Shown: one piece after another, positions 8,500 to 46,817 of the stretch
Position numbering within the stretch: position 1 is the first letter of the stretch
How the letters are laid out: each line of letters opens with the position of its first letter
Source: Schmidtea polychroa
Taxonomy: Eukaryota
Assembly: GCA_044892525.1 (NCBI GenBank)
Contig: CM097887.1
Coordinates: forward strand, 51,584,001-51,648,000
Length of the DNA: 64,000 bases
Reading direction: 5' to 3'
Made by a program: the position numbers and the translations under genes
The notes under the pieces: generated by a model
Databases searched by the model: none
The model's input: only the letters and a program-made list of their open reading frames with translations
Told to the model about the DNA's origin: nothing

Positions 8500-9189
8500 T
8501 CAACTATAATAAAATAAAACCAATGGGGGTCCCTAAAAGAAATAAATTACAAAAAACAAAAATTAATTAAAAATTAATTAACTAATGGAGAACCCGAGCT
8601 AATGGGAAACCCGAGACAATGGAAAACCCGGGCGATTTGAGAGAACCTGAATTATCAATCAAATTAGGAAAGGCAATTAAATTAGCCGACTAAAATTAAA
8701 TTGGAACGAGCCGTCAAAGAAAAAGGGGCAATTTCCTTAAAGCGAATTAGAGCTACAAGAGGAAGCCCGGGGAAGTTAGATCCAGACTAATTTGTCAAAG
8801 TAAAATCAATTAAAAAATGGATATAAAAGCAACCGACAAGAAAACAGAATTTCCAGTTGGTCGAAGAAAAAGAAAACAAGAAGTTTAGCGAGAGCGACAA
8901 AGAAAACATTAAAATTAGTAGCAATTGAATAATCTAAATCGAACGTACCAGAAAGGGACAGCTTCCGTTGGAAGATCTATCCCTGCCTAAGATTTGTAGT
9001 TGTATTGAAAAGTGCAGACCAAAAATGGTTGTATCAAGTGTGGTGTAACTAAAGTGGTGTAACTTAAAGTGTAACTAAAGTGTAACTGTATCAGTTTTAA
9101 ATAAAGATTTTGTGTTGGGTCGTTTATTTATTTTGAAAAGAACACAAAGGAGTCAGACAGTAATACCGACTTGCACAAAATACCCAACA
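8500..9189 (+). mobile_element. 5'-truncated LTR related to the main Gypsy LTR family
   Basis: Shares AATTAATTAA-CTAATGG..AACCCGAG repeats, TTGGTCGAAG and GGAGTCAGA...CCGACTT...CAACA with the 23829-24669 LTR. Ends CCCAACA at 9189. No PBS follows and the 5' boundary is unclear. Confidence 0.7.
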
Positions 9190-23828: not shown

Positions 23829-24669
23829 TGTTGGGGTTAGAGCAAAAACAAAATAAATTTCACATGGTACCAGAAAGCAGAACAAAAATTGGTAAAATCA
23901 ATATAAGTACAAAATTAATTAAAATTTAATGAAAATTAAAAATCAATATTGAACGGGGGTATCGGGTATGGTTGAATGCCAAATTGTTAGACGAGGTTAG
24001 AAAGCATAATAAAAATGTAATAGGGTGATCATAGAAAAACTTAATAAGGAAAAACAAATTAATTAAAATTAATTAATCTGTAATGGAAAGCCCGAGCCAA
24101 TGGAAAGCCCGAGCCAATGGAAAGCCCGAGCCAATGGAAAGCCCGAGCCCATGGGAAACCCGAGCACTGAAGAAAACCCGATGCGCAGTGAGACCCGAGA
24201 CACCAGATAAGGTAATAATAGTTCGATTTATAATTTCAGGGTAAACAAATTAAAATAATTATCAAACCTTTCAATATTAACTTAGGGTGCCCGGGGAAAC
24301 AATTAATTTGAATTTGCTAGATAATTGGCCTCTTAGACACATTATAAAAGGAGAGCTTAGAAATGAGCAAGCCGCCATTTGGTCGAAGAGAAAAAGGAAA
24401 AAGCTAAACAGAAAATCCAGCAAGGACAAGTCAAAAGAGGAAATTTGTGAATTATAAAGAAGCTAGACTCGTACAAGAAAAGGTAATTGCCCCTTGGGTT
24501 CTATACCTTAACGAGACAAATTTGAATTGAGAAAAAGGTGCAAATAGTGACAAATTGTAATTGTGATAAAAATCAAATAAAGTTATTTTGTGTTGAGTTT
24601 CCATTGATTTGGTAAAATAAGAGCACGAGGAGTCAGAGAAAGGACCGACTTACAAATAAAAACTCAACA
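23829..24669 (+). repeat. 5' LTR (841 bp)
   Basis: Begins TGTTGGG and ends CTCAACA (terminal inverted repeat). The first ~340 bp are near-identical to 37727-38040. AATAAA at ~24577. Internal 17-bp tandem repeat. Confidence 0.95.
24082..24166 (+). repeat. 17-bp tandem repeat within the LTR (AATGGAAAGCCCGAGCC x4 plus one degenerate unit)
   Basis: Directly visible. The 3' LTR has only 2 units plus the degenerate one. Confidence 0.95.
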
Positions 24670-24672
24670 TTT

Positions 24673-24690
24673 TGGTGAGCCCGACGTGAT
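24673..24690 (+). promoter_or_regulatory. Primer-binding site complementary to tRNA-Trp
   Basis: TGGTGAGCCCGACGTGAT lies 3 nt after the LTR end. It differs by one base from TGGTGACCCCGACGTGAT, the complement of the vertebrate tRNA-Trp(CCA) 3' end. Confidence 0.88.
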
Positions 24691-25095
24691 CAAGTCGGCA
24701 GTGGATATTGTGGAAAAGTGAAAAGATAAAATTTAATATAATTGAAAGTTGAATATAATTGCCGAGATATAAAGTTGAAATTAAATTTGTTAAAGAGAAA
24801 TTAAATTGAAAAAGAAAAAAAAAGAGAAATTGAACAAATTGTGCAGTTGAAATAAAAGAGTGAAAGTTAACAAAATTTAAAAGATATTAAAATAAAGTTG
24901 TGGAAAAGTTTCAAAAATTTATAAAAACTATTATTGGAAATTAATTCAAAATTAAAACAAAAGGTAAAGTTAAAAATTGTAATTTTTTAAAATTTAGACG
25001 AGAAACAGTTGTCCAAGAGAAATTATACAATCTGAGAAGTAAAAAACACTTGGAAAATATGGACGAGCAACTCAAATATCAATGAACAAATCCCA

Positions 25096-25437
25096 GTGTC
25101 TACTACTCAAGCGAACAATGGAAATGATTATGCCAGTTGTCAAAAATTACCAGTTGAGCAATATGGAGGAGATCCAGTCGAATTTGTTGACTTTATGGCA
25201 GATTATTACATGTATGCTACAGCTTATGGATGGAGCCAAGCAACTATGGTACAACGCCTACCATTATATTTAAAAGGAGCTGCGCGAGAGGCTTGGCAAC
25301 AGATTGATAAACGACCTATAGCAAATGATTGGACAAGATTGAAAGATGCGTTGGCAGCCAAGTTGATCGGAGGAGATATAAAGAGAATGATGCGTAAAAG
25401 TTTTACAGTCGAGTGCAAAAGCCCGATGAATCTATAA
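25096..25437 (+). CDS. gag: Gag N-terminal/capsid segment; frameshifts into the next ORF at ~25395
   Basis: 'FVDFMADYYMYATAYGWS...LPLYLKGAAREAW...WTRLKDAL' is a retrotransposon capsid motif. Restoring one A in CGTAAAAG joins it to 'FYSRVQKPDESISEF'. Confidence 0.88.
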   Translation: MSTTQANNGNDYASCQKLPVEQYGGDPVEFVDFMADYYMYATAYGWSQATMVQRLPLYLKGAAREAWQQIDKRPIANDWTRLKDALAAKLIGGDIKRMMRKSFTVECKSPMNL

Positions 25438-27284
25438 GTGAGTTTGCTTATCATTTAACTACTCTTGCAGAGAAAGCGTTCGAAGTAAAGCCAGATCAAG
25501 AAGAAGTGGCAAAGCAAGTCAAAGAATTACTTCAGGACCAATTTTTGACAGGAGTCAAGAAAGAAATCAAAAAGGCTTTGTGTTTTGTTGATTTTACAAA
25601 TTTTGATGACTTGATTAGAAAAGCCATGAGAATTGAAATGAATCTTAAAACGACTCAGTCAAAGGCGGAATCATTTGCGATTATCAATGAGCCTAGAGAT
25701 AGATATATAACCCCAGTCAGCGATAACTTGCTTCAAAGATCAACCAGTCCATCTCCCAAGTTCAGAGTGAAATTTGAACCAAGAAAGTCAACAGACAGTC
25801 CAAATGAGGAAAGAGAAAGAACTCTTCAATGCAGTCATTGCCAGAGAATAGGTCATCACATAAATCAATGCTGGTTTAAAAATAACATTCGAAGAAGCCC
25901 TAGTCTGGTTCAGTGTGATTACTGTCAAAGAAAAGGACATAGCAATAGCCAATGTTGGTTCAAAAATAACGAACAACGTAGTCCAAAGGGAATGCGGTCA
26001 GAATGGTTGAAAAGTAATGGTGGTAAAAGTTTTAACAGAACGAATATCAGTAACCAGAGAACTAATGATAACATACAATGCTATAATTGTGGAAGGAAAG
26101 GACATGTCACTCGAAATTGTTTTGCAAGATCCAGATCTCCATCAACATCACCCTCACCGCAAAGAGACAGAGTTAACCTACAAGGCCAAATCCAATGTCA
26201 TTCCTGTAGAGGCTATGGACATATGGCTAGATCTTGTCCAAAGAGTAATAATATATTTCAAAGGCCGATATTAAAGAAGACGAGATTTCAGAAAGACAAA
26301 TCGCAATCTGACAATATAGCTTTTGCGCAAACAGATGATTTTAACGAGAGGATTGAAAATGAGATAAAGCAGATGAGTAGACGCTTGGATCGATTAATGT
26401 GCAAATTCGAATCTGACGAAGAATTGAGTAACCACATGATTTATGAGTCGCAATCAGAAGGATCAGAGACAGATTCTAAAGAGAAATTGGATAAAGAAGA
26501 CATAGAAAGAGAAAAAGTAACAATGATTATGCTGAGGATCAACAAATTTATTGAAGAGAGAGCAACAGAAACATCTAAAGTAATCTCATCGCTAAAGGAA
26601 TATAGTCAAATGACACTGAGCATACGAAAATTGAAAAATGAAATTGAGTTATGTGCCGATTATTATGATACAAATTTAAAAGACGAAAAGGAAATTGAAA
26701 ATGTGATGAAAATATTTGGAAAAACGTATCGAGAAAGTACATGGTTAGATTTTATGTTAATTAATGTTTTAGATGAAAAGGAGAAAGATGTAGCTTGCAT
26801 TCGGTGTGAAGTAGGAGATTGTGTAGAGGATTTAAAGAATAGATCAGAAGAAAATAATGGGAAACAGATAATAGAATTGAAGTTTAAAAATCGATGCTTA
26901 CGCAATGATGAGTTTTTAATTGATTGTGGTTTTATACCAGGAAATAAAAATAAAGTGGAGATAGCAAAAATGACAAGATGTTATGAAAATGTAAAAAGTG
27001 ATCTACAGAAAATTGTAAATGAGCTGAGAGAAGCTTTTGATGAGTGGAATAAAAATGCAATTGATGAAAAGTTGAAATTGGTAGAGGAAACGGAATTTGA
27101 CGAAAATAGTAAATTAGAAATTGTAAATGTAGTACGTCCATACATATATAAAAACTCGAAATATAAAGAAATATTAAAAGGTTTATTACGAAAATTTGGA
27201 AAAGAGATTAGAGAGACCAGGATAGAATTGAAACCATTTGTAATAGCATTAGATTATAAAAATGAAGGAAAACAGAGTATATAG
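25413..27284 (+). CDS. gag: Gag capsid C-terminus, four CCHC zinc knuckles and an uncharacterised helical extension
   Basis: 'QKPDESISEFAYHL...DQFLTGV'. Knuckles CSHCQRIGHHINQC, CDYCQRKGHSNSQC, CYNCGRKGHVTRNC and CHSCRGYGHMARSC (25830-26237). About 350 further aa follow with no recognised domain. Confidence 0.88.
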   Translation: MQKPDESISEFAYHLTTLAEKAFEVKPDQEEVAKQVKELLQDQFLTGVKKEIKKALCFVDFTNFDDLIRKAMRIEMNLKTTQSKAESFAIINEPRDRYITPVSDNLLQRSTSPSPKFRVKFEPRKSTDSPNEERERTLQCSHCQRIGHHINQCWFKNNIRRSPSLVQCDYCQRKGHSNSQCWFKNNEQRSPKGMRSEWLKSNGGKSFNRTNISNQRTNDNIQCYNCGRKGHVTRNCFARSRSPSTSPSPQRDRVNLQGQIQCHSCRGYGHMARSCPKSNNIFQRPILKKTRFQKDKSQSDNIAFAQTDDFNERIENEIKQMSRRLDRLMCKFESDEELSNHMIYESQSEGSETDSKEKLDKEDIEREKVTMIMLRINKFIEERATETSKVISSLKEYSQMTLSIRKLKNEIELCADYYDTNLKDEKEIENVMKIFGKTYRESTWLDFMLINVLDEKEKDVACIRCEVGDCVEDLKNRSEENNGKQIIELKFKNRCLRNDEFLIDCGFIPGNKNKVEIAKMTRCYENVKSDLQKIVNELREAFDEWNKNAIDEKLKLVEETEFDENSKLEIVNVVRPYIYKNSKYKEILKGLLRKFGKEIRETRIELKPFVIALDYKNEGKQSI

Positions 27285-27337
27285 AAGAACATTGGTGTAC
27301 CAAGGTTGGTAAATTACGAAAGAGAGCCGCTGAAAGA

Positions 27338-27856
27338 TTGGGAAAGGATGGAATTATTCAATTGATATTTAAAAGTGAAGAATTAGGTGACGATGAATAT
27401 TTATACGATTGTGGGTTTATACCTCAAGAATTAGATGAAGACGGATATTTATGTTCAGATACAGGATATTCAATAAATTGTGTAATAGTAATCAAAAATC
27501 AGATATCAAATAAAGTATATGAGTCCGACAGGTCAAATAATGAGATAGAAAGGGATGATGAAAATGAAAGAAGAGTTGAAAATGAAGGTGTACTAGATAA
27601 CAAGGACATAGGAACTAATGATAAAGATAAAAGTATAATAACAGAAGTATTAAAGGAAGGGCAAGTAACCAAAAGTGAAATGAATAGTGAAATAAAGACA
27701 AAAAAGCCTAGAACTTTGTATGAAATTAAAAAGAGCCGGGTGAAGTCAGAATTAGAAGTTGATGAGACAAAAAAGTTATTAAAGAATTTAGTTAAAATAG
27801 TATATCCAATGTTCGAAATAAAAGTGGATACAAGTGCGAATTGGGAGACACAGTGA
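27338..27856 (+). CDS. Accessory segment with the second 'DExLxDCGFIP' repeat; probably a frameshifted continuation of the gag ORF
   Basis: 'IIQLIFKSEELGDDEYLYDCGFIP' parallels 'IIELKFKNRCLRNDEFLIDCGFIP' at 26868-26939. Adding one A at ~27270 joins the two frames. Confidence 0.65.
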   Translation: MGKDGIIQLIFKSEELGDDEYLYDCGFIPQELDEDGYLCSDTGYSINCVIVIKNQISNKVYESDRSNNEIERDDENERRVENEGVLDNKDIGTNDKDKSIITEVLKEGQVTKSEMNSEIKTKKPRTLYEIKKSRVKSELEVDETKKLLKNLVKIVYPMFEIKVDTSANWETQ

Positions 27857-27884
27857 ATGGAATGGAAAAGAAACTTCCTAGTGT

Positions 27885-29627
27885 ATGCAGAGATTTGTTG
27901 AAAATGATGACTTTTGTAATAGAGGAGTCATGAAAACTTTGACGAAAAATGGAATTGATAAAGAAGTAGTACTAACAAGCTTAACATATGCAGTTTTAGA
28001 GATAGGAGCTCATAAGAAAATGGAATCAGATGAATTAGAGAATTTGATAGATGCAGCTGCTCGAGTTTTAAATGAATATTTAATGAATTGGATAAAAAGG
28101 AATGGAGGTTGGGTCAAAGTGGTAAAAGTGCTTACGATAAATAAAAATAACAAAATTAATATACCTCATAAATCGCTAAACGGGAGAGTTAGCTCAATAT
28201 TGAGAAAAACGATGGTATTTCCATGGGTAATGTTTATGATAATTGTTTTGTGCGCAATAATTACTCAGACAACCTGTATGACTGCATATGATTGTTCACA
28301 AACGGAAATGGGAAAAATTTATTCGGTAGTAGATATGTCAGAATGTTCGGATGTATACCCGAGAAAACTAAAGATTGAAAAAGATGTAAAATATCATGTA
28401 TATCAAGAATCTGATTTAAGACGAACGAAAGTTCGAGAATGTATAGTTAAACATACTACATTTATATTTTATTGTGGGAAGTGGAGCCATACTTCATTGA
28501 TAAAGATGTATACAATCCCAAGGCCAGTGGAAGTTATGCCAGAAAATTGTTTAGCAGCTTTTCAAACAGAAGAATTGAAAATAAGTTCGGAAATTAAACT
28601 GAAGGCAAAAATAAATCATAGGACGAGAGAAACGGTGGTTACGAAGGGATTAATGAAGCAAGACGGAGATTGTGAAGGGGAACCGTACAAAGTCAGTGGT
28701 AAGATTATTCAAAAAGCAGTGGTGATAGAAGAATATCTAACGGAATTGAGAGAATTTGAAGGAGCTTTTGATGATGATACGGGGAAGTTACAGACCCACC
28801 CATTTTGTAATATGAAACACAATAACTGTCAAACGGGGGAATCAATTCTTGTTTATGAAGTAAGAACTAATGTATGTAACTTAGCGCATTTAAAAACGAT
28901 GAATTTCAAAGAAATTAGTGGAGAGCAGTTTAGGGAAAGGCCTGACAATATTAATGTAAATTATGGAGTAAATATGACAATCAGATCAACGCCCGTTTGG
29001 ACAAGAAAAACAGCGACTGTATTAATGTCAATAATTCCGATGGACGCCATGCGTTTTATATTAAAGGAAGTTACCAATAAATGTGGTCAGACGGTATACT
29101 CCACAAATTACAAAGGAGTTTACGTATCAACAGTAATAGTACAGGAAGCTAAAACTAGAATTCATACGGGGGATATTAAATTAACCCACTATTTTAACAA
29201 TAAAATTGATTACTTATTTCATTATAGTCAGAACACCATGGACAATATCTATCGAGAAATGATCTTAAATAATTGTAAATTAAATAAAGAAATACTTCGA
29301 AATCGAATGGCAATGGCCATCACCAACCCAAATTTGGTTGCACCCATGTTAATGTCAGAAAATGGAGTGTTTGCGAGAATCTTCGGAGAAGCTTTATACA
29401 GTTATAAATGTAAGGAAGTGTCAGTAAAAATAATGAAATACGAAAAATGTACTAATGAATTGCCAGTTAGCGTCGATGGGAAGATACGATTTATGGAACC
29501 AATAACACGGATATTACTTGAAGAAAACATAAAACCAAAATTACTCCAGTGCAATAGATTGCTAGCCCCGTTATACCGTTTGGCACCAGATTCTTGGATA
29601 GCATTACCCGATCACCGGATAAGTTAG
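27885..29627 (+). CDS. env: Bcl-2-like domain, hydrophobic signal/TM segment and chuvirus-like envelope glycoprotein ectodomain
   Basis: aa 51-80 'LENLIDAAARVLNEYLMNWIKRNGGWVKVV' match helix 6/BH2 of the Bcl-2 family. aa 110-131 are hydrophobic. The ectodomain begins 'TAYDCS...YSVVDMSEC...ECIVKHTTFIFYCGKWSHTS...NC...KQDGDCEG', the cysteine pattern of chuvirus-type glycoproteins. Confidence 0.82.
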   Translation: MQRFVENDDFCNRGVMKTLTKNGIDKEVVLTSLTYAVLEIGAHKKMESDELENLIDAAARVLNEYLMNWIKRNGGWVKVVKVLTINKNNKINIPHKSLNGRVSSILRKTMVFPWVMFMIIVLCAIITQTTCMTAYDCSQTEMGKIYSVVDMSECSDVYPRKLKIEKDVKYHVYQESDLRRTKVRECIVKHTTFIFYCGKWSHTSLIKMYTIPRPVEVMPENCLAAFQTEELKISSEIKLKAKINHRTRETVVTKGLMKQDGDCEGEPYKVSGKIIQKAVVIEEYLTELREFEGAFDDDTGKLQTHPFCNMKHNNCQTGESILVYEVRTNVCNLAHLKTMNFKEISGEQFRERPDNINVNYGVNMTIRSTPVWTRKTATVLMSIIPMDAMRFILKEVTNKCGQTVYSTNYKGVYVSTVIVQEAKTRIHTGDIKLTHYFNNKIDYLFHYSQNTMDNIYREMILNNCKLNKEILRNRMAMAITNPNLVAPMLMSENGVFARIFGEALYSYKCKEVSVKIMKYEKCTNELPVSVDGKIRFMEPITRILLEENIKPKLLQCNRLLAPLYRLAPDSWIALPDHRIS

Positions 29628-29690
29628 AACTCCAGATAAATTGGAATTAATCATTTAGAATATTTAGTGAACTTTACATCCCTAAATTAA

Positions 29691-30206
29691 ATGGCACAAC
29701 TAGGTTTCTACGCAAGCGAGGATATAGAAGAAGCTCAAAGAAATTTATTATTTCCATCAAAGAAAGAACGGGTGATATCAGAAATGATTGATACAATATT
29801 ACCAAACGGAGAAAGTAAGGTTAATTATGAATATCTCCTAACGCCAGATCATTTCAAAAAAGCAACGTACAAAACGATGGAAAAGATTTGGGGAAAATTT
29901 ATGTTCTTAGGACAAGCGTGTGCTGGTTTGATTGGCATCTATGTGATCGTAGTAACAATAAAGGTGATACTATCTCAAATTTTATCTGCTCATAGAATAT
30001 ATATAATATCCGGATGGTCATGGAAAATAATTATTGGTTGTATTCCGTTTATAGCAAGATTTTTTATTAATCATCATCAATATAAAGAAATGGCGAATGT
30101 GAGAGCACAGAGAGCACTTTGTGTGAATCGAGGGACAGAAATAGTGGCAATAACAACAACAATGACAATGGCAGAAACGAGCAAATGTATTTTAGAAAAG
30201 AAATAA
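29691..30206 (+). CDS. env: Envelope glycoprotein C-terminal part with transmembrane segments
   Basis: Same frame as 27885-29627, after a short disrupted stretch. Hydrophobic 'FMFLGQACAGLIGIYVIVVTIKVILSQIL' and 'IYIISGWSWKIIIGCIPFIARFFI'. Confidence 0.75.
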   Translation: MAQLGFYASEDIEEAQRNLLFPSKKERVISEMIDTILPNGESKVNYEYLLTPDHFKKATYKTMEKIWGKFMFLGQACAGLIGIYVIVVTIKVILSQILSAHRIYIISGWSWKIIIGCIPFIARFFINHHQYKEMANVRAQRALCVNRGTEIVAITTTMTMAETSKCILEKK

Positions 30207-31873
30207 TGAAAAGCGAGGTAAAACCAGAGTCACGGTGCCTACTAGAACAGATGCCAAAACATAAAGGAATCGACACTCTCTCAAAATGGTATACACCGGT
30301 ATTCCTTCCAACAGCACCAGCATATCCAAGTGCAAGGCTAAAAGAAATGAAACCAGTAGAACATATTAAACGAGAAGCCGAAAAGATTGAACCAACAAGT
30401 GCTGAAATAGAACGGAAAAACATGCTCGGATTACCATGTAGTTATGCGTTGATGACAATAGGAAATAGAGGCAAACAACCTCGAACAAATATACTATTTA
30501 ACGAGAGAAAGGTCAAAGCCTTGTTAGATTCCGGTTCCAGTCATACTATAGTGTCAGATAAACTGTTGACAAGGGAAGAGAGAGCAAAGATGAAACCAAC
30601 GAATAAAATTATTAAATCAATGTCTCACAATGTACTGAATATAATCGGGAAGCTAGAAGTCAAATTAATTATTGGTAACCAAGAAATAACACATTATGTG
30701 TCAGTAATGAGTAAAAGCCCTGTTGAATGTCTAATTGGTATGGATGTTATGGAGCAACTGCGAGGAATTGCGCTGGATCTGACAACAGGAAAATTAATAA
30801 AGGGACAATTATATACAGTTGCAAATAAAGCAAGAGAAGTTGTTTTAAATCAAACGTTGGAAATACCAGCAAGAAGCGAAATAATATGTTATGCTAGTGT
30901 AGCAAACACGTCAGATGACGAATGTGTTTTCGAACCCAGTCGAAAACTAGTAGAGAAATACGAATTGCCAATGTGCGACGATATAGTACAAGTAAAAGAT
31001 CAGGCAGTGCCAGTGAGAATGGCTAATCTTAGCACAAAATCTATCCAAATGAAACCTAACAAGAAGTTAGGAAAGTTAATGAAATTTAAAACAGAACAAG
31101 CCCAAAAATTACCGAGAAACATTAAAATTTATAGAAAACCACAAGTGACGAGCAACGATTTGACAGAAGCACAAAAACAACAGTTTATGGCATTATTAAA
31201 AAGGTACAAAAGAGTGTTTGCAAAGCACGAGTATGATTTGGGACTTACCCAGGTGATCGAACATGAGATACCACTACTCGATGAAACTCCTATTAAATTA
31301 CGACCGTATAGAATCCCTTATATACATCAAGAGGAAAGTGATAGACAGATAAAAGCGATGAAAGAGTTTGACATAATAAGAGACAGTTCATCACCATTCT
31401 CATCCTCAATAGTAGTAGTCAAAAAGAAAGACGGTGATTTACGGTTTTGTGTGGATTATCGAAAATTGAATCAGGCTACAAGAAAAGACACCTACCCTTT
31501 GCTAGTTCCACAGGAAATGTTTGATCAAATGGGAGAAGTACAATTCTTCACAGTAATCGATTTGAATAAGGGATATAATCAATTTAAAGTAAAAGAAGAA
31601 GATAGAAGGAAAACGGCATTTTCAGACGGTAAAGGTTTGTACGAATTCAATGTGTTACCATTTGGCTTAACGGGAGCACCAGTGACGTTCCAGCGAGGTA
31701 TGAATTTTGTGTTAAGAGACATCCCACACGCACTAGTTTATATTGATGATATAATAATATTTTCGAATAACTTTCAGGAACATTTGGAAGATGTAGAAAC
31801 AGTATTCCAAAAATTGTTAAAGGCGAATTTAAAAATAAACCCTCAAAATGTGAGTGGGGGATATCTGAGGTAG
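30119..31873 (+). CDS. pol: Aspartic protease and reverse transcriptase (frameshift near the RT end)
   Basis: 'ALLDSGSSHTIVS' (PR, D at 30527). RT motifs 'LRFCVDYRKLN', 'IDLNKGYNQ', 'PFGLTGAPVTFQR' and 'YIDDIIIFS'. One A is missing in CCTCAAAATG (~31848). Confidence 0.95.
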   Translation: MCESRDRNSGNNNNNDNGRNEQMYFRKEIMKSEVKPESRCLLEQMPKHKGIDTLSKWYTPVFLPTAPAYPSARLKEMKPVEHIKREAEKIEPTSAEIERKNMLGLPCSYALMTIGNRGKQPRTNILFNERKVKALLDSGSSHTIVSDKLLTREERAKMKPTNKIIKSMSHNVLNIIGKLEVKLIIGNQEITHYVSVMSKSPVECLIGMDVMEQLRGIALDLTTGKLIKGQLYTVANKAREVVLNQTLEIPARSEIICYASVANTSDDECVFEPSRKLVEKYELPMCDDIVQVKDQAVPVRMANLSTKSIQMKPNKKLGKLMKFKTEQAQKLPRNIKIYRKPQVTSNDLTEAQKQQFMALLKRYKRVFAKHEYDLGLTQVIEHEIPLLDETPIKLRPYRIPYIHQEESDRQIKAMKEFDIIRDSSSPFSSSIVVVKKKDGDLRFCVDYRKLNQATRKDTYPLLVPQEMFDQMGEVQFFTVIDLNKGYNQFKVKEEDRRKTAFSDGKGLYEFNVLPFGLTGAPVTFQRGMNFVLRDIPHALVYIDDIIIFSNNFQEHLEDVETVFQKLLKANLKINPQNVSGGYLR

Positions 31874-32406
31874 TCTATGTTGGTCAAATTATATCCCGAA
31901 GTGGATTACAGCCAAACCCCGAAAATGTAGAAAAAATTAAAAATTATCCAATTCCAAAAAATGTAGATCATGTTAGACAATTTCTCGGATTAGCCAGTTA
32001 TTATAGAAAATTCATTAAACATTTTGCGCATGTAGCACAACCCTTGAACATATTATTAAAAAAGCAGACTCAATTTAAATGGACAAAAACACAACAGGAA
32101 GCGTTCGAATCGCTGAAAGAAAGTTTGATTAAAAAACCAATATTAAGATGTCCAAATTTTAAAATACCATTTATCCTAATGACAGATGCGAGCAATTTTG
32201 CGTTGGGCGCAGTGCTAGGACAACGGGTTGAAGGAGAAAGAGATCATGTCATCGCATATGCGAGTAAAACTTTGAAACCGCATGAAAAGAATTATTCTAC
32301 GATTGAAAAAGAAACGTTGGCATTAGTTAATGGAATAACTACATTTCAACAGTATTTAGTTGGAAGAAGATTTGTTGTCTTTACGGACCATAACCCTTTA
32401 CAATGA
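31850..32406 (+). CDS. pol: RT thumb/connection and RNase H; ends at a premature TGA (W codon) before integrase
   Basis: 'QFLGLASYYRKFI', 'LMTDASNFALGAVLGQ', 'NYSTIEKETLAL' and 'TDHNPLQ*LMKH'. In frame with ORF 32410. Confidence 0.92.
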
Positions 32407-32409
32407 CTT

Positions 32410-34596
32410 ATGAAGCATAGAGATTCAGCAAGTAAGTTGATTAGATGGTCAATTGCACTACAGGAATATGATTTTGAAATTAAATACCGTACGGGTAAAT
32501 CAAATGCAAATGCAGACACACTGTCGAGAATCCCTGAAGAAAATAATAATAATGATGAAAAAACGAACTATAATGATACAATATTTATGGTAATTAAATC
32601 AGCAAATAATATAAAGGAATTACAATATGATCAAGAAAATAATGAGGAACTAAATCAATTACGGAAAAATGCAGTAACAATTAAAAAGGAGAGTGATTGG
32701 AAACATATTGTTGAGGAAAAACATAAATATATTATCCACGAGGGTTTATTAAAATGTGTAAAAAATGAAAATTTACTAATTATAGTTCCAGCAAAACATC
32801 GAGAAACATTATTGTTGATTTACCACGATGGAGCACTAGGAGGGCATTTATCAGCTCGAAAAACATTATCAAGATTGAAATTGAAGTATTATTGGGAGAC
32901 AATGGAACAAGATGTCAAACAACGGTGCCATACTTGTAGAGTATGCTTGACAAGACGAAATACAGGAAGGAAAATAAAAGTTCCACTAAGACCTATGCCG
33001 GTGCCAGCAGCGCCAATGGAAATGACAGCAATGGACATTGTCGGTCCATTGCCGGAAACAATAAATGGCAATAAATATATTGTTGTATTTTGCGACTATC
33101 TAACTAAATGGCCAGAAGCATATGCCATGCAAAATCAAAAGGCAGAAACAGTTGCAAAAATTTTAGTAGAAAACATTATTTTCCGATATGGAGCACCAGA
33201 TAAATTACTTACAGATCAAGGAACGAATTTTCAAAGTGAATTATTTAGTTCGATATCGGAGCTATTTGGTATATTAAAACTTAGTACATCACCATATCAT
33301 CCACAAACAGATGGCCTAGTAGAAAGGTTTAACGGAACATTAATTAATATGATATCATCTCATGTGAATCGAAAACAAAGAGATTGGGATTTATTTATCA
33401 AACCATGTTTATTCGCATATCGAAATGCAGTTAATGAAAGCACTGGTGAAACACCCTTTTATCTTATGTATCTACGGCGAAATAATATGCCAATTGATTT
33501 GAAATTTCAAACACCTATATTGCAGTATATGGATACATCCGATTATAAAGTAATTATGCATGAGAGATTACAGTCAGTGTGGGCTCAAGCTGGTTTAAAA
33601 ATAAGACATAGCCAGGAAACGTATAAAAAATCCTACGACAGGAAAGCACATGCTCATAATATTAATATAGGAGATTTAGTCTATGTGAATAAACCAGAAC
33701 CAGAAAAGGGCTTGTCACCAAAGTTACAACGACCGTTTAAAGGACCGTATATTGTATGTGATACAACAGAAACCAACCTGAAATTACGTCCACAAAATAA
33801 TAAAAAGGCTGGGACAATTATAGTTCATGCTAATCGTTGTAAGAAAGTGCCGGCAATGGAGAGTGATAGATATCCGTTAACATCGAAAAAGAACAAATCA
33901 GTAGAAGAAAAAGTGGTCAAGCAAAAAGTTATTAAAAACCCAGTACCCTTAGGATATACCACTAAGGTCTTATTAATAACAACAATAATGCTACTAAATG
34001 TTTTGGGAACAAATGCAGGTCGATCTTTTCCAAAGTATGCAATAAAAAGGGTCCCATTATTGGAGAAAATTCATATATATTCAACATGTACCCAAATAGT
34101 ATGGTTTTATCTGCGTGGGTCAACGGAAGAAATAGAAATAAGTAATTTATTAAATCACTTTGACCCACCTGTAAAGTTGAATTTCAATAAAAATATTTTC
34201 GTGGCTCGTCAATTAACAATCAATTATGAATACCCTTGGCAAATAACAGAGTTACTATTTCAAAATAATAATACAAAAATTCGTAATATAATCCAAATTG
34301 AAATATTAACAAAAGATTTAAACAGTCTGGTTTCAATAGAACCAGTAGTGAATGGAATCGACGTATATTGGGAACCCCACGAATCCAAAAAAGTGAAATT
34401 AATCTTCCAAAATAATATTATCGATACATTAAACATCAGAAAACCCTTTGTCCATTATAATAATTTAAAATTAAATCAAACGTATGATATCGTTGTGCAA
34501 TATTATGAAAAGCTTTTGCGTGAAAATGGTACCGAAATCGATAACCAGTGGGTAAAAATTGATTCTATTCGACAATCCACAAAATTGGAAAATTAA
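32410..34596 (+). CDS. pol: Integrase (HHCC, DDE, GPY) fused in frame to a signal-like hydrophobic segment and an FN3-like ectodomain
   Basis: 'YHDGALGGHL...CHTCRVC', 'MDIVGP', 'TDQGTNF', 'VERFNGTL' and 'RPFKGPY'. Then 'VLLITTIMLLNVLGTNAG' (33967-34020) and 'GIDVYWEP...NNLKLNQTYDIVVQ'. Confidence 0.9.
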   Translation: MKHRDSASKLIRWSIALQEYDFEIKYRTGKSNANADTLSRIPEENNNNDEKTNYNDTIFMVIKSANNIKELQYDQENNEELNQLRKNAVTIKKESDWKHIVEEKHKYIIHEGLLKCVKNENLLIIVPAKHRETLLLIYHDGALGGHLSARKTLSRLKLKYYWETMEQDVKQRCHTCRVCLTRRNTGRKIKVPLRPMPVPAAPMEMTAMDIVGPLPETINGNKYIVVFCDYLTKWPEAYAMQNQKAETVAKILVENIIFRYGAPDKLLTDQGTNFQSELFSSISELFGILKLSTSPYHPQTDGLVERFNGTLINMISSHVNRKQRDWDLFIKPCLFAYRNAVNESTGETPFYLMYLRRNNMPIDLKFQTPILQYMDTSDYKVIMHERLQSVWAQAGLKIRHSQETYKKSYDRKAHAHNINIGDLVYVNKPEPEKGLSPKLQRPFKGPYIVCDTTETNLKLRPQNNKKAGTIIVHANRCKKVPAMESDRYPLTSKKNKSVEEKVVKQKVIKNPVPLGYTTKVLLITTIMLLNVLGTNAGRSFPKYAIKRVPLLEKIHIYSTCTQIVWFYLRGSTEEIEISNLLNHFDPPVKLNFNKNIFVARQLTINYEYPWQITELLFQNNNTKIRNIIQIEILTKDLNSLVSIEPVVNGIDVYWEPHESKKVKLIFQNNIIDTLNIRKPFVHYNNLKLNQTYDIVVQYYEKLLRENGTEIDNQWVKIDSIRQSTKLEN

Positions 34597-35178
34597 CCAA
34601 ATCGTATTATTTTACAATATAATAATCAAAAATGGATAGCCACACGACAAGCGATAACCAATAAAAAAGTGGAAATTTACTATTGCGGAAAACTGCAAGC
34701 TACATTGCAAGGTAATATTACATCTAAAATATTAATATTTCAGCAAATACGTTCAAAGTCAACTTCAAAAATTGTGATTGTAAAAATTAATTATTATCAA
34801 CGTGCTTTTCATCCCGATCAATGGAAAATCGTTCTAGTGGAAAGTAAATCTATTCGAGTACAATTTGACACAATTGAGGCTGAAAGCTCAAAATACATGT
34901 ACAATTCATCAACCAATGTGATTAATCAACTCATAAATGACATTAATTCTTCTTTTATTAATGGAAACCAAATTCCAAGAAACAAAACTACATTCTCATT
35001 ATCAAATGATTTTAAAAATACTTATGTTATTTTGTCATCTATCATCATCAGTGTGACACCATTTTCCATTATCATTCTTCTCACTCTACTGATTTACTTT
35101 CAAAGACTTAACAGACAATATGAATGTCAATCCAAGATCTCAAAACCTTGGATTGTCTACGAGGAAACATGGGTTTAG
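34597..35178 (+). CDS. C-terminal half of a type I membrane protein (ectodomain, TM, short tail ending ETWV); in frame with integrase after one TAA
   Basis: Same frame as 32410-34596 and open from 34597. TM 'VILSSIIISVTPFSIIILLTLLIYF' (~35026-35100). Tail 'KPWIVYEETWV*'. Confidence 0.72.
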   Translation, partial: PNRIILQYNNQKWIATRQAITNKKVEIYYCGKLQATLQGNITSKILIFQQIRSKSTSKIVIVKINYYQRAFHPDQWKIVLVESKSIRVQFDTIEAESSKYMYNSSTNVINQLINDINSSFINGNQIPRNKTTFSLSNDFKNTYVILSSIIISVTPFSIIILLTLLIYFQRLNRQYECQSKISKPWIVYEETWV

Positions 35179-35470
35179 TGAGATACATTTATTTTGCATG
35201 CAATTATGATATTATAATAGTACTGTATTAGTAGTAACTTTTATTTTATGATAGTTGTAAAATTTGCACCTTTCAATCAAAGAGAAATATGATTGGCTAA
35301 GAGGGATAGAAAAAAAAATATGAACACAAAATTTTATGGGAAAGAAAATTTAACAACTGTACATAAGGGGTCGTAAAAATAATTAAAATCAGTTTAATTA
35401 GTTAAATCAAAGAAAATAAAATCTTTCAAAATTAAATAGGTAAATTTTTATTAATATTTATTATTTATAC

Positions 35471-35519
35471 AGTGATCACCAAGGCAGTGCCCCTGGGGTA
35501 CTCTCCCGTGTTGATCACT
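35471..35519 (+). promoter_or_regulatory. GC-rich stem-loop upstream of the 3' ORF (function unknown)
   Basis: AGTGATCA pairs with TGATCACT and encloses AGTGCCC-CTG-GGGTACT, in otherwise very AT-rich intergenic DNA. Confidence 0.45.
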
Positions 35520-35562
35520 TCAATCTTAAAATCTAACAAATTTAATAGTGAATATTTCAGTA

Positions 35563-36989
35563 ATGGAACAAATCCAATGGACAAGAGCAATTTATGACGG
35601 ATATTTGAAGATGCACCGCAACCACGTGAGACAAGATGCCATCGCCATCAATGACAACCGGAAAATACCAAACTACTTGAGGGTGGATGACAGAAAATGA
35701 AAACCCGAATTTTTAAAGTGAGCCGGAAATCGGTGAAAATAATAGAAGAAGATGAAATCAAGGATGGAAATGAGTACATGCTACACGTGATCAAAGGGAA
35801 AGTGGAGGTGATAGACGACGGACAAAAAGTCTTTTGGGAATTACACCAAGGATCATCGTGGAAACTGCAGAAAGAAACCTTGAGGAAGAAGTTGAGAGCA
35901 TCCAATGAAGATTCAAGAGTTGTTTTGGAAACACGAATCCCGAACGAGGAAAATGAAATTCCACAAACCACTTCAAAATTGCCAGATGATCCAACAATGC
36001 TTCCAATTACTACAGAAATGCTGAAAAGAAGATTGTCATTTATTCGAAGGGAAATGAGTCTGGAGGAGATACGGAACCAAATCGTGTTTATTGATGCAGA
36101 ATATGGAACATCAGAAAATAATAAAATGATTCCGTTGTCAATAGCGATGATGAGTTACGAAGGAAAAATAATTAAAAATTCATATTTGACACCAAGAGGA
36201 AGATTGCGTCATTTCAATTCCAGCATTCATGGTATCACAGAGATTGCCAGTAGAAACCAATGCGACCAGTATACGGAGATGCGAAAAGTTCAAAAACTAA
36301 CTGTTGGAAAAATTTTAATGGGACATGATCTTCATGCAGAATCGGAACATTTGAAAATCTGGACAAATCAATTGTACGGAATTAGGGATCTAGCAACAGC
36401 ACAGGCACTCCAACTGAAAGGAATAACAAGGAGAGGAGAATTCTTTTAACTCAAAACAGTGGTTGAAGAAATATTTGGAGAACAAACACAAACTGGTATT
36501 CACTCAGCATTGGAAGATGTCAAAAATGTACGGAGAGTGTACAGGAAAATTGAGAATTTATGGGAAGATGATGTAAAAATCCAGAAAATAGTCCCGTCAA
36601 AGAAATATTCTTTGGCAGAATATCAAAACCTTTATGCGGTGGACAAAGTACCAACAACGAGTGGAACATACTTCGAGATAGTTGAACAAGTCGATCTAAC
36701 AATTGAAGAACAAATGGAAATTGACGAAGCACCGTTGAAATGGGCAACTGAAGAATATTTGGATCCGATCAATGAAAGCCTCGAAATGATAATAAGTTTA
36801 TCTATTCACAGAATTCCGGCATCATTTGAACATGGGCCTATTCTTCATTTAGAGGATAGAAAAAGAAAATCAACAACAAAAATCGAAGCCAGCGAGTCCA
36901 TCATGGTGAATGGAATAGTCTATTATCGGGAGAAAACATATATCCGCTACAAGAGTGAGGCGGGAAAAATAGAATTGAAGATTGATTGA
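35563..36989 (+). pseudogene. 3' accessory ORF with an ISG20/REX4-like DEDDh 3'-5' exonuclease (ORFs 35697-36449 and 36459-36989, in frame, one TAA between them)
   Basis: ExoI 'IVFIDAEYG' (36081), 'YLTPRGRLRHFNSSIHGITE', ExoII-like 'KILMGHDLHAE', 'IRDLAT' and ExoIII '*LKTVVEEIFGEQTQTGIHSALEDV' (36501-36518). Probable frameshifted N-terminus from the ATG at 35563. Confidence 0.85.
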
Positions 36990-37277
36990 TTATTGTTTAT
37001 ATATTTATTATTATTATTATTATTATTATTGTTTATATATATATATATATCATGATTAATAAAAACTTTCCCTCGTCTTATATATATTTTGGCGTCCCAT
37101 CCCATAATTGAATATTGAATTAAATAAATTAAATAAATAAAATAATCAAAATGAATAAATGAATAAATAAATAAAATAATCAAATAAAACAATTAAATAG
37201 TAACAAAAAAAATTAAATAACCAAACGTAACTATTATTGTCAGTATTGTAGTTAAAATTAGTATTATTAGCATTTAT

Positions 37278-37538
37278 NNNNNNNNNNNNNNNNNNNNNNN
37301 NNNNNNNNNNNNNNNNNNNNNNNNNNNNNNNNNNNNNNNNNNNNNNNNNNNNNNNNNNNNNNNNNNNNNNNNNNNNNNNNNNNNNNNNNNNNNNNNNNNN
37401 NNNNNNNNNNNNNNNNNNNNNNNNNNNNNNNNNNNNNNNNNNNNNNNNNNNNNNNNNNNNNNNNNNNNNNNNNNNNNNNNNNNNNNNNNNNNNNNNNNNN
37501 NNNNNNNNNNNNNNNNNNNNNNNNNNNNNNNNNNNNNN
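37278..37538. other. Assembly gap (N run) in the element's 3' UTR, flanked by ATT-rich simple sequence
   Basis: Run of n characters. Confidence 1.
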
Positions 37539-37712
37539 GTTACTATTATCATATTATTATTTCACTATTATTACTATTATTATTAATTCACTGCTATTAT
37601 TAGTGATACTATTATTATAAAATTATTATAAAATATCATTATGGTATTGAGAATACTCTACCATCTTAATAAATAATTAATAATTGAATAGATTCGAGGA
37701 CGAATCTTAATT

Positions 37713-37724
37713 AAAAGGGGGAGA
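37713..37724 (+). promoter_or_regulatory. Polypurine tract
   Basis: AAAAGGGGGAGA, 2 nt before the 3' LTR start TGTTGGG. Confidence 0.92.
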
Positions 37725-37726
37725 TA

Positions 37727-38040
37727 TGTTGGGGTTAGAGCAAAAACAAAATAAATTTCACATGGTATCAGAAAGCAGAACAAAAATTGGTAAAATCAAT
37801 ATAAGTACAAAATTAATTAAAATTTAATGAAAATTAAAAATCAATATTGAACGGGGGTATCGGGTATGGTTGAATGCCAAATTGTTAGACGAGGTTAGAA
37901 AGCATAATAAAAATGTAATAGGGTGATCATAGAAAAACTTAATAAGGAAAAACAAATTAATTAAAATTAATTAATCTGTAATGGAAAGCCCGAACCAATG
38001 GAAAGCCCGAGCCCATGGGAAACCCGAGCACTGAAGAAAA
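37727..38040 (+). repeat. 3' LTR, truncated after ~314 bp
   Basis: Near-identical to 23829-24176, apart from two substitutions I can see and two fewer 17-bp units. Identity stops abruptly at 38040. Confidence 0.92.
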
Positions 38041-38064: not shown

Positions 38065-39524
38065 TGTTGGGCTAAGAATGATGCGAGATCTGAATAAAAC
38101 TTCGTAATGAAAAGTAATTAAATAACTAAATGAGTAAGAGTAATCCAAAATAATTGGTAGAAGGTCGAGACGAAGCCTTAAACCACAGAAATTTCAATTA
38201 TTTATAATTAAGCTGTACAAGAAACATAAAGTCATAAAAATATCCTGAAAGTAGACACAGCCCAGCAATAATAATCAGGTTACCCAAAAGGTGAGACTGA
38301 GATAAAAAGCGATAGCTTTGGCAAGCAGGAAAAGAGAAAAACCACCAAAATAAAAAATAAAAATCAACCAATCAAATTGATTGAGATCAAAATTAAAAAT
38401 AAATGAATAAAACTATCAAAACGCAAGGGTGTGACCGAATCATATTTTCTAAGCTTCAAGAAAAAAATCTACAAAAGGCCGACGTCTCGGCAGACTACCA
38501 CCACTCATTTACAACAAAAAGAAACCGAGTTTTAAAAAGTTATACTTTATTCAACAGTTATGAAATTGTTGAGGTTTTAAAAGAAAATTATTTAAATATA
38601 TAGTTCAGATTAAAATGAAAACCGAAATTGAATGGCGGTCAAGCAGAGAAGTAATGGCAAAGAAAGATATGATAAAAACAGAACTATAAAAGGGTACAAT
38701 CAGACATGAAATGGAAAAATGCGCAAACCTGAGGAAAGGTAACTAAGTGAAAAGTTATCGAAATTGAAGCTGGAAAACTGGAGAGGGGTAGATTAGGGGA
38801 TGGTGAAGAAAACAGTGAGCAAGAAATTGTTAGAAAATGTTTAGAAAGGGTCGTAAAGCAGACAAATATGAAAAAACGTAAAATATTAATTAATTAATTA
38901 ATTGGTTAATGGGAAACCCGAACTAAGGGGAAGTCCGAGCGATGAAGAAACCCCGAGCACGGCAATCTGGAAGGGTAAACAAACGAGGAATTCAGAGGGT
39001 AATTATCCAAACAACCGGATAAAAGAGGGTAAACAAAAGAAAGGGAATTACTTAAAGGCTCAACAGAAATAACTAATTAGAGAATGATATCTAAGGAAGT
39101 CAAAACCAATTAGGTCAAAAACGGAGCAATCACAACAATTATGGGAGTATATATGGAAACTCAAAATTCATATAATCGGCGGTAGCCTTAGGTAGGGAAG
39201 AAGAAACAGACGATAGGAGTTCGAGGAATAAAATAAAAGAAGAAAAAGAATTATAAGAATCGAGGAGTCGGAAAGCAATATTAAAGGAGTTCGGATCAGA
39301 GAGAGGAATCAAACAAAAAGGTGAAACTTATTTTTAAATCGTCCAGAGCGGAGTTCGATCGGAAATTGTAAGAAAATTGTGGTTAACTAGAAGTGTCGTT
39401 ATTTATCGAGAATTGTAAATTTTCTATAAAAAAAATATACGTTGGGAGTTTGTGTTTATTAATTTTTGGAACACGTGGAGTCAGAGTAACCAACAGTTGA
39501 TTTTTGGTATCATAAAACCAAACA
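38065..39524 (+). mobile_element. Diverged LTR of a related Gypsy family
   Basis: Begins TGTTGGG. Contains AATTAATTAATT..TAATGGGAAACCCGAA (~38900) and a GGAGTCAGAG..CAACA-type end. The end is ambiguous (39495 or 39524) and no TSD was found. Confidence 0.6.
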
Positions 39525-40099: not shown

Positions 40100-41566
40100 C
40101 AGGGTTTTAAGTTGTATTTTGACAAGCATAATATATTTTTTGACAATATTAACCAGATAATAAACAATATTAAATCTATTATTGACAATATATACTAAAT
40201 TAATAACAAAAAAAGCTTTATTAATGACATTATAAATATATTTTTAGACATTCTATGCATGGCTCGACAAATAAATCAATTTCCTGCTTCCATAGCAAAT
40301 AATACAGAAATAGTAGTCGAAAGTGATAACACTGCCGAACCAGCTATCCGTAACACTTTTCGAGTACAACGAAGAAATAATACAATTTCAAATGCTGATA
40401 GAGATCGTGTTATTACAGCATACGATGACGGGACTTCAATAGTTGATATTTCTCGAATTTTATCAATAAAAAGAACTACAATTTATGGTATTTTGAAGAA
40501 GTACCATAACACTGGAGTGGTGGAAGCTGATAAGAGAGGCGGCGATCATCCACTAAAATTGACAGAGGATCAAAAAAATCAAGTAAAAGAGTGGGTTGAT
40601 AATAACTGCCAATTATCGTTGAAAGTTTTAGCGGAAAAGGTATTTACAGAGTTTCAAATTAGAATATCCACAACTTATGTATATAATTTATTATCTCGTT
40701 TTCATTATTCAATGAAAAGACTTCATTTAATTCCAGAGAGAAGAAATTCAACAGAAGTAATTGAAACCAGAAAAGAATATGCACTTAAATTCTCTTCTAT
40801 ACTAAGTATATATTCAGAACAAGAATTAATATTTATTGATGAGGTGGGATTCAACGTTTCTATGAGAACAACAAGAGGAAGATCACAAATAGGCACTCCT
40901 GCAACATTAAATGTACCGACCATACGATCAAGAAATATATCTATAGCATGTGCAATGAACAAAAATGGGTTATTGTTTTATAAATCTTTTAATCGGGCCC
41001 TCAATAAAGAGAAGTTTATCGAATATATAACAGAGCTAAAGGAAGTTTTAATTGATAAAGAGATTCACAGATGCGTAATCATAATGGATAATGTTAAGTT
41101 CCATAAAAGTCCTGAAGTGCTTAGCGCTATAAATAATGAAAATACAACTGTAAAATTTCTTCCGCCGTACTCAACTTTTCTCAATCCTATTGAGAACATG
41201 TTCAGCAAGTGGAAGGAAATCACCAAAAGAACCAACACCAGAAATGAAGATGATCTTATGCGAGCAATTGAAAATGGAAGTACCCTAATATCTTCACAAG
41301 ACTGTAGTAATTATGTGCGAAATATGTGGTCATATATACCAAGATGTATTGAGGGAGAAATTATTCTTAATTAAATGTCACTTAATTTTTTTGTCATTAC
41401 ATTTTTTGTAATATATTACATTAATATATGTATTATTGTCATTTATATTATTTAAATTGGCATTTATTTTATTAATATTGTCATTAATGTATTTAACATT
41501 GTCAAAGATTATATTAAAATATTCAAAAAATATGTTATGTTTGTCATAATACGACTTGAAACCCTG
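40100..41566 (+). mobile_element. Tc1/IS630-like DNA transposon, full length
   Basis: 44-bp TIRs (CAGGGTTT...) with 5 mismatches, TA on both sides and repeated TGACAA/TTGTCA subterminal motifs. Confidence 0.92.
40259..41374 (+). CDS. DD34E transposase, intact 371 aa ORF
   Basis: HTH 'TSIVDISRILSIKRTTIYGILKKY', 'FIDEVGF' and 'IIMDNVKFH...FLPPYSTFLNPIEN'. I count 34 residues between the second D and E. Confidence 0.93.
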   Translation: MARQINQFPASIANNTEIVVESDNTAEPAIRNTFRVQRRNNTISNADRDRVITAYDDGTSIVDISRILSIKRTTIYGILKKYHNTGVVEADKRGGDHPLKLTEDQKNQVKEWVDNNCQLSLKVLAEKVFTEFQIRISTTYVYNLLSRFHYSMKRLHLIPERRNSTEVIETRKEYALKFSSILSIYSEQELIFIDEVGFNVSMRTTRGRSQIGTPATLNVPTIRSRNISIACAMNKNGLLFYKSFNRALNKEKFIEYITELKEVLIDKEIHRCVIIMDNVKFHKSPEVLSAINNENTTVKFLPPYSTFLNPIENMFSKWKEITKRTNTRNEDDLMRAIENGSTLISSQDCSNYVRNMWSYIPRCIEGEIILN

Positions 41567-44549: not shown

Positions 44550-46817
44550 CACCTATCCCCCGATTTACACGGTACTTGTTTTACACGTTTTCGCTTTTAC
44601 ACGGTTTTTCAAATAAGTTTTTTTTTGTTTTTATCGCACTCTACTAAATGCTACTGTGTTAGAACACGTGCGCTGTGTACACATCTCACGGGGAATCCCT
44701 AGCTTATGTGCTGACTTGCTGCACATGCACACTGTGTCTGTATTTCTTCGCATAAAATTAAAGTTTTAAAGTTTAAAGTGAGTGCATAATTTAGATTACA
44801 TATTATAAATTAACATAAATTAAAAACAATTATAGGCTTATAATGTCGAAAGAAGTTAAAAGAAAAGTTATTTCTTTAGAAACTAAAATCGAAATTTTGG
44901 ATCGCTTACGAAAGGGAGGTAGAGTAGTAGATGTTGCAAAATCATATAGCATGAACGAAGCTACAATAAGAACTATTAGAACAAATGAAAACACAATTAG
45001 AAAGAGTGTTGCAGCTGGCAATACCACGAGTATGGGCACAACATCATACACCAGAAATATCGCAATGGAAAAAATGGAGAAAGCGTTAATGCTTTGGATA
45101 GTACCCCTTGATACGGCCGCTAAAACAAATAAAGCAGTACGAATTTACGAAAAAATTGTAGAGCAATTCCCATCTTCTTCTTCAACTGAAAAGAAGCCAA
45201 ATTTTTTGGCAAGTCATGGCTGGTTCAAAAGATTTAAAATAAGACATTCTTTACACAGCTTAACATTAAAAGGTGAACTGGCTTCTGGCGACGTAGATGC
45301 AGCCCAAGAATATCCAGCAAATTTTGGAGAAATTATTAACGACAATTCATACACCTCTGATCAGCTTTTCAATGCTGATGAGTCAGGGTTATTCTGGAAA
45401 AAAATGCCTGAAAGGACTTATGTCTCAAAATTTCATAAATCGGCTAGTGGTCATAAAGCAGCAAAAGATCGCATAACAATTCTTTTCTGTAGCAATGCTT
45501 CAGGAGATTATATTATGAAACCATTAGTGATTAACAAATCAAAAGTGCCCCGTGCCTTTAAAGGAGTAAACATCAAAAATCTTCCCGTTTATTGGAGGGC
45601 TAATAAGAAAGCGTGGGTTACTGCTGCAATGTTGACTGAATGGTCTCATGAATGTTTTATCCCAGATGCCAAAAAATATTTAGGTTCAAAGGGATTGCCT
45701 TTTAAAGTGCTTTTGTTAATTGACAATGCGCCGGGTCACCCACAAGATCTAGAATATGAGAACTTTGAAGTAAAATTTTTACCAAAAAATAAAACTTCAT
45801 TATTACAACCATTGGACCAAGGCATAATTTCTACTTTTAAAGCTTTGTACATAAAACGAGCCTTTACATATATTTTGGAACAAATGGAGAAAAATGAATC
45901 TTTAACAGTTATTAGTGCTTGGAAAAATTTTACAATAATAGACTGTGTGAAGCATATCGCCTTATCATACACTGCGATTAAGCAAACAACGCTCAATAGC
46001 TGTTGAAAAAATTGTGGCCAAATGTAGTCAAAAATGAACATTCCATTTCAACGTTAAATGATGAATATTCGCAGATAGTACAGATGGCGCATTCATTGGA
46101 CGGAGAAGGTTTTGATGATTTTACTGATGATGATATCGCAGAGTTAATGGCTGATAAAGAACTAAGTGAGGATGATTTAGTTAACTTAGTTTGCGAAAGT
46201 GAGTCTGAAAAATCTGATGAAGAGGAATTAGTACCAGTAACATTCACTGCTAAAGTCATCCGCGAAGGACTCGCATTGGGGAGAAAGCTGGGTAATCATT
46301 TTATACAAAATGACACAAACGTAGAAAGGGCTTTACGATTCCAACGTGACATAAATCGCTGCTTGGCTCAATAAGAAGAAGTTTACAAAGATCTTACAAA
46401 AAATTCGAAGCAATTGTTAATAACCGATTTTATTACCACCTCTCAGAATGTAAATATTTCTGCTTCAAACATCGAATCGGCACAAATAACTTCGAGTGAT
46501 GAAAATGAATTCCAACCTTCGATTCCGAAAAAAAGAATGAGAGTAATTTCTGATAGTGATGAAGGATAATAAAACACCTTTGGTTTTATTTTTTGTTCTT
46601 CTGTTTAATGTATTGTAATTAAATAAAAAAACAGTGTTTCCGTAATATATTACATATTTTAACCTGTCAATGCATTTTATTTTTATTTCTGTGTACTCCT
46701 AAAAATATTGAAAAAAATCACAACTGTTAAATAGCAAAATTATGCATTTTCTGCAAGCTTTTCGATTTACACGGTTTTCTCAGGAACGTATCTACCGTGT
46801 AAATCGGGGGATAGGTG
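44550..46817 (+). mobile_element. Tigger/pogo-family DNA transposon nested in the Buster element
   Basis: Perfect 23-bp TIRs CACCTATCCCCCGATTTACACGG. TA TSD. Confidence 0.94.
44843..46571 (+). pseudogene. Tigger-like (CENP-B HTH plus DDE_1) transposase, disrupted
   Basis: 'KRKVISLETKIEILDRL', 'ASHGWFKRFK', 'FNADESGLFWKKMP', 'LLIDNAPGHP' and 'LQPLDQGII'. There is a 1-bp deletion at ~46005 (C-W-K-K-L-W-P) and a premature TAA at 46372. Confidence 0.9.

Follow-up and report, generated by a model that had tools for sequence, protein, structure and literature searches.

A broken GAG-ENV-POL Ty3/Gypsy element of Schmidtea polychroa with a second predicted membrane protein and an ISG20-like exonuclease gene

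The window analysed here is a stretch of 64,000 nucleotides from Schmidtea polychroa (GCA_044892525.1, contig CM097887.1, positions 51,584,001 to 51,648,000 of the forward strand). At positions 23829..38040 it holds a broken copy of a Ty3/Gypsy (Metaviridae) element with additional cargo domains, all on the + strand. The original prediction of an element bounded by long terminal repeats (LTRs), with gag, a chuvirus-like envelope gene (env) and protease, reverse transcriptase, RNase H and integrase (PR-RT-RH-IN), was confirmed by the LTRs and by Pfam matches. The 5′ LTR (23829..24669) has TG...CA ends and 17-bp tandem repeats at 24082-24165. The 3′ LTR (37727..38040) is truncated after 314 bases, and neither the window nor the next stretch yielded the rest of it. 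Target duplication is unreadable at this copy because of the truncation. From LTR to LTR the element measures 13.9 kb, and the two LTRs show 5 differences over 303 aligned bases. A primer-binding site of 18 bases (24673..24690) is the complement of the 3′ terminus of tRNA-Trp(CCA) as this genome encodes it, and a polypurine tract (37713..37724) is located just 5′ of the 3′ LTR. The primer-site pattern matches a tRNA-Trp array near 55.02 Mb (L089, G000:C4), in which ARAGORN found eight tRNA-Trp genes in 2.5 kb. This tRNA-Trp(CCA) array has a period of 284 bp; the pattern matched 856 times genome-wide. Of the first 100 matches listed, about two-thirds fall within the array. The element thus shows the marks of Ty3/Gypsy elements, namely TG...CA LTRs, a tRNA primer site, a polypurine tract and target duplication (the last in a sister subfamily), and its pol order, PR-RT-RH-IN, is that of Ty3/Gypsy.

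Pfam was run on 11 open reading frames (ORFs) of the window. The gag region (25036..26300), interrupted by a frame change, yielded a zinc knuckle (E = 2.4e-7), and natural copies elsewhere in the genome indicate four CCHC knuckles. Downstream lie two weakly supported ubiquitin-like repeats (approximate limits 26700..27460; RAD23 UBL, E = 0.013), for which 17 of the 22 matches listed were ubiquitin-like proteins. A Bcl-2-like domain follows (27750..28130). Its Pfam match was below the cut-off (E = 4.9e-4), and the likeness to Bcl-2 appears to rest on the conserved BH2-type end (E = 6e-5 against Bcl-xL). The BH1 signature NWGR is absent from the domain. A hydrophobic leader then precedes a chuvirus/gB-type envelope glycoprotein (28190..30110, membrane anchor near 29900-29995), identified as a Monjiviricetes fusion glycoprotein (PF24664, E = 1.7e-58; second match, E = 1.2e-20). 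The env is followed by the protease, reverse transcriptase, RNase H and integrase assigned by Pfam (30450..33900), which are broken in the window copy.

In frame after the integrase, the element encodes a second membrane protein (33931..35178) with a signal-like segment, two or three predicted beta-sandwich domains, a transmembrane helix and an E-T-W-V end. The assignment of these domains to the FN3/Ig-like type is moderately supported. After the membrane helix the C-terminus is free and ends in [ST]-x-[VIL] in the three subfamilies A, B and C described below and in the relatives P0003 and P0005; the motif is absent in the relative P0002. The [ST]-x-V tail is kept down to about 20% identity of the protein, and by its residues and position it is predicted to be a class I PDZ-binding motif. 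One element copy (L020:4390-8546) is interrupted near the integrase end by a polymerase-like gene fused in frame to the integrase; from its look we presume it to be a Polinton-type gene for a protein-primed polymerase.

A separate ORF2 (35563..36989) contains a weakly supported cupin-like N-terminal domain, an ISG20/ISG20L2-type DEDDh exonuclease domain (~36080-36570) and a C-terminal part. The DEDDh fold is firmly supported, the domain having a DnaQ fold closest to ISG20. In its D-E-D-H-D active-site pattern the first D, the E, the H and the last D are retained, and the D of the second motif is replaced by E in seven of the eight sequences aligned, whereas the eighth lacks it. A degenerate fourth lineage (L071-L073) includes an exonuclease ORF without active-site residues (L071) and a copy in which the Bcl-2-like domain and env leader almost adjoin the FN3-like region, as if env-pol had been deleted. 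Of the folds first proposed, the exonuclease is firmly supported, the FN3 assignment moderately, and the Bcl-2 assignment through its BH2 end without NWGR. The ubiquitin-like repeats and the cupin-like domain are additional to the parts named at first.

Between 25.0 and 35.18 kb of the window, ORF1 has eight breaks. At five of them the frame changes, one is a same-frame break and the remaining two are single stops. We compared the breaks with ten sister copies of subfamily A, leaving out one duplicate and taking one member of a tandem pair. Among the copies covering each site, the eight breaks are open in 4/6, 9/10, 10/10, 7/10, 8/10, 9/9, 9/9 and 7/7. The two breaks of ORF2 are open in 3/4 and 4/4 subfamily A copies, and in none of the four covering the junction does ORF1 continue into ORF2. 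Therefore, the element originally had two ORFs and has decayed in the window copy, although assembly errors could account for some of the breaks. Natural intact ORF1 was found in 2 of 60 rows of subfamily A (3,419 aa; the two are a tandem pair) and, in the sister subfamily B, in 19 of 90 rows (3,413-3,565 aa), together 21 of the 150 rows scored. The single polyprotein of about 3,300 aa predicted from the broken frames is thus borne out by natural frames of similar length. The near-identical subfamily A pair at L067-L070 stands in tandem with one common LTR, and its insertion lies in a TA run, as at the 5′ end of the window copy.

Searches of the genome recovered many copies. The Bcl-2/env DNA gave 40 matches at 96-100% (40 scored of 855 candidates). 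The part after the integrase gave the 60 rows of subfamily A and 90 rows of subfamily B, the latter at 62-64% (150 scored of 1,188 candidates), and the exonuclease gave 39 rows at 85-100% and 111 rows at 70-73% (150 scored of 983 candidates). Subfamily C, detected by searching with a distant homologue, has the same domain order as A and B. Transposition is evident in subfamily B: among eight copies fetched, all seven tested at both ends are flanked by 4-bp target duplications, and the LTR pairs of seven copies have 0-2 mismatches over 850-901 bases. The family is young, high-copy and recently active.

The cargo is common to all three subfamilies examined. Ratios of nonsynonymous to synonymous differences (pN/pS) were calculated pairwise from one natural copy per subfamily, with bootstrap intervals. 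Between A and B they were 0.04 for the reverse transcriptase, 0.15 for the integrase, 0.16 for env, 0.26 for the exonuclease, 0.48 for the post-integrase ectodomain, 0.50 for the Bcl-2-like domain and 0.74 for the post-integrase stalk and tail. Every bootstrap interval has its upper end below 1, in some cases barely. Since synonymous sites are near saturation (pS = 0.5-0.8 between A and B), the ratios understate selection. Judged by these sequence comparisons, all cargo domains are under purifying selection. It is highly improbable, and largely refuted, that the extra domains are functionless passengers or locus-specific insertions. Such an origin would agree with the faster evolution of the cargo relative to the reverse transcriptase, the Bcl-2-like domain reaching a pN/pS of 0.7 in the comparison with subfamily C, and with the loss of nuclease residues in the degenerate relative L071. 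Against it stand a domain order common to the three subfamilies, frames that stayed open although synonymous sites approached saturation, and a conserved active site and tail. The presence of the cargo in three subfamilies and pN/pS values below 1 thus support the view that it is part of the element.

The cargo might instead benefit the host, the Bcl-2-like and ISG20-like activities giving stress protection or antiviral defence that makes the family tolerable. This seems improbable to us. The exonuclease is closest to ISG20, described as an antiviral RNase in mammals in the part of the literature consulted, and PMC6338049, in the part available, proposes that accessory domains serve in host defence. 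However, the cargo is carried by mobile copies that number in the hundreds and have young LTRs, and not by one fixed locus, and Burro elements are PIWI-silenced and rise in differentiated cells upon knockdown, according to the available part of PMC8532177.

The genome also contains giant Burro-like elements. They were sampled by a BIR search (150 scored of 309 candidates), and three loci were examined (L099-L112, G000). Two of the three have gag, Bcl-2-like, env and pol; in the stretches fetched, the third has pol onward only. The single upstream frame that was scanned has a confirmed MATH domain. The 3′ ORFs encode TRAF-like (zinc finger and MATH) and IAP-like (BIR and RING) proteins, followed by three further ORFs. 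The reverse transcriptase is about 47% and the env 33-35% identical to those of the window element. After the integrase, all three loci have two hydrophobic segments forming a signal-to-transmembrane module, which ends in A-T-L-V in two of them. The [ST]-x-V tail of the compact family thus recurs, as T-L-V, at the end of ORF1 in Burro-like copies. No homology between the giant and compact post-integrase modules was detected (hhalign, 0.4%), and no exonuclease was found among giant-locus ORFs of at least 200 aa. More distant relatives (P0007-P0009) possess env; a Ubl-like repeat is present in P0007 and P0008, and neither a Bcl-2 nor an FN3-like part was seen in any of the three. In P0007 and P0008, env stands between gag and pol, and several tandem aspartic-protease-like domains replace the Bcl-2 and FN3-like parts. 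The lineage is modular.

Much of this architecture has been described, and the novelty first claimed was overstated. Arkhipova and Yushenova 2019 (PMC6431247) described Burro elements with gag, Ubi2/SUMO-like, BCL2-like and mononegavirus-like env parts in frame before pol, and proposed them as proviruses that meddle with apoptosis; they cite Grohme 2018 and Jurka 2007 as earlier sources on Burro/GYPSM1, which enter here through that citation. Like the window family, Burro/GYPSM1 has one ORF with gag, CCHC knuckles, ubiquitin-like, BCL2-like, env and PR-RT-RH-IN. The sizes differ, at about 14 kb and an ORF1 of 3,419-3,437 aa for the window family against more than 30 kb and 4,873-5,140 aa for Burro. 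None of the MATH, BIR, ankyrin and dUTPase domains of Burro was found by Pfam in the 11 window ORFs, whereas MATH and BIR are detected with this library in the giant copies, and the 3′ ORFs are TRAF- and IAP-like there but ISG20-like in the window family.

Chary and Hayashi (eLife 2026; PMC13524379) catalogued GAG-ENV-POL HSV/gB-type errantiviruses in flatworms. The part of that paper available describes Smed_errantivirus_1 and _2, which span about 14.8 kb, occur in 45 and 215 copies and, like the window family, have a gB/chuvirus-type env between gag and pol. In the sequence given there for Smed_errantivirus_1, 82 of 100 env residues, counted by hand, are identical to the window env. The table, as available, lists no tRNA type for the two elements, whereas the window family has a tRNA-Trp site. 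The terms fibronectin, exonuclease, bcl, ubiquitin, PDZ and DEDD gave no match in the main text, the supplements lying outside this check. By env type, env position and env identity, the window element is probably a GAG-ENV-POL HSV/gB-type errantivirus.

3′ DEDD exonuclease ORFs are likewise known. Rodriguez et al. 2017 (PMC5408684), in the part available, report a DEDDy ORF3 in the Juno and Vesta LTR elements of bdelloid rotifers. These Gypsy-like elements resemble the window family in that their 3′ accessory ORF encodes an exonuclease of the DEDD family, including a DEED variant. ORF3 is RNase D-like, whereas the window ORF2 is ISG20/ISG20L2-like with a cupin-like N-terminus, and ORF3 replaces env, whereas ORF2 coexists with it. 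A chuvirus-type glycoprotein occurs in mosquito BEL/Pao elements (PMC7642597; also PMC13524379), which share it with the window family but differ in superfamily and host; their abstract-level account contains none of the window family's cargo. The gag-Ubl-BCL2-env order before pol and the GAG-ENV-POL layout are thus already published. For the FN3-like, PDZ-tail and ISG20-like cargo, no published description was found in titles and abstracts (Grohme 2018, Repbase and GyDB, outside this comparison, may bear on it), and two features appear undescribed, the conserved-tail surface protein after the integrase and the ORF with cupin-like and ISG20-type DEDDh domains.

We consider it probable that the broken copy in the window derives from a Ty3/Gypsy GAG-ENV-POL errantivirus that was active recently and moves between cells in enveloped particles, with cargo that keeps the producing cell alive and steers budding. 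ORF1 is a single frame in natural copies. By analogy with the polyproteins of enveloped RNA viruses, its product would cross the membrane of the endoplasmic reticulum (ER) four times. Gag, both Ubl repeats and the Bcl-2-like domain would be cytosolic, with the env leader also anchoring the Bcl-2 tail. The luminal parts would be env and the FN3-like part, and PR-RT-RH-IN between them would be cytosolic. Cleavage by the element's own protease and host signal peptidase might then release capsid, an anchored Bcl-2-like protein, the fusion glycoprotein, the enzymes and an FN3-like surface protein. The last residues of ORF1 may dock on host PDZ scaffolds at junctions or at one cell surface, and ORF2 may be a Mg-dependent 3′-5′ exonuclease that trims element or host-defence RNA, the substrate being a guess.

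The same features could belong, though we find this unlikely, to a purely intracellular retrotransposon, in which Env and the FN3-like protein target Gag/Pol to ER or junction membranes, or pass ribonucleoproteins between touching cells, without free infectious particles. Because all parts come from one frame, Env cannot be produced apart from Gag and Pol, and the PDZ-type tail fits targeting to junctions. Distant homologues are very few in large protein libraries, so there is no sign of wide horizontal spread. However, env is as conserved as the integrase (pN/pS between subfamilies 0.16-0.22) and keeps 17-18 cysteines, as expected for a working fusion protein.

The family would extend the concept of complex retroviruses rich in accessory genes to an invertebrate Metaviridae lineage. 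More tentatively, planarian GAG-ENV-POL elements may be complex endogenous viruses whose single polyprotein yields two surface proteins, a gB-type fusogen and an FN3 adhesion protein of host-like type. The PDZ-binding tail of the latter would aim budding at cell junctions. Compact and giant lineages would have placed different ectodomains in the post-integrase slot and kept the tail, the ISG20-like nuclease would counter small-RNA defence, and stem cells would be reached from somatic cells with weak PIWI activity. The question whether Burro-like elements are genuine planarian viruses was raised in PMC6431247. The compact, young, high-copy family offers discrete domains that can be assayed singly: the second surface protein, the PDZ-type tail and the ISG20-like nuclease.

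Elsewhere in the window, fragments of another Gypsy-like element and diverged related LTR pieces with the 17-bp repeat of the 5′ LTR occur at 57712-59780, 63562-63998, 8582-8630 and 38891-38951. Two transposase-like ORFs (40199-41374 and 44819-46374) are, from their look, presumably of the Tc1/mariner and Tigger/pogo types.

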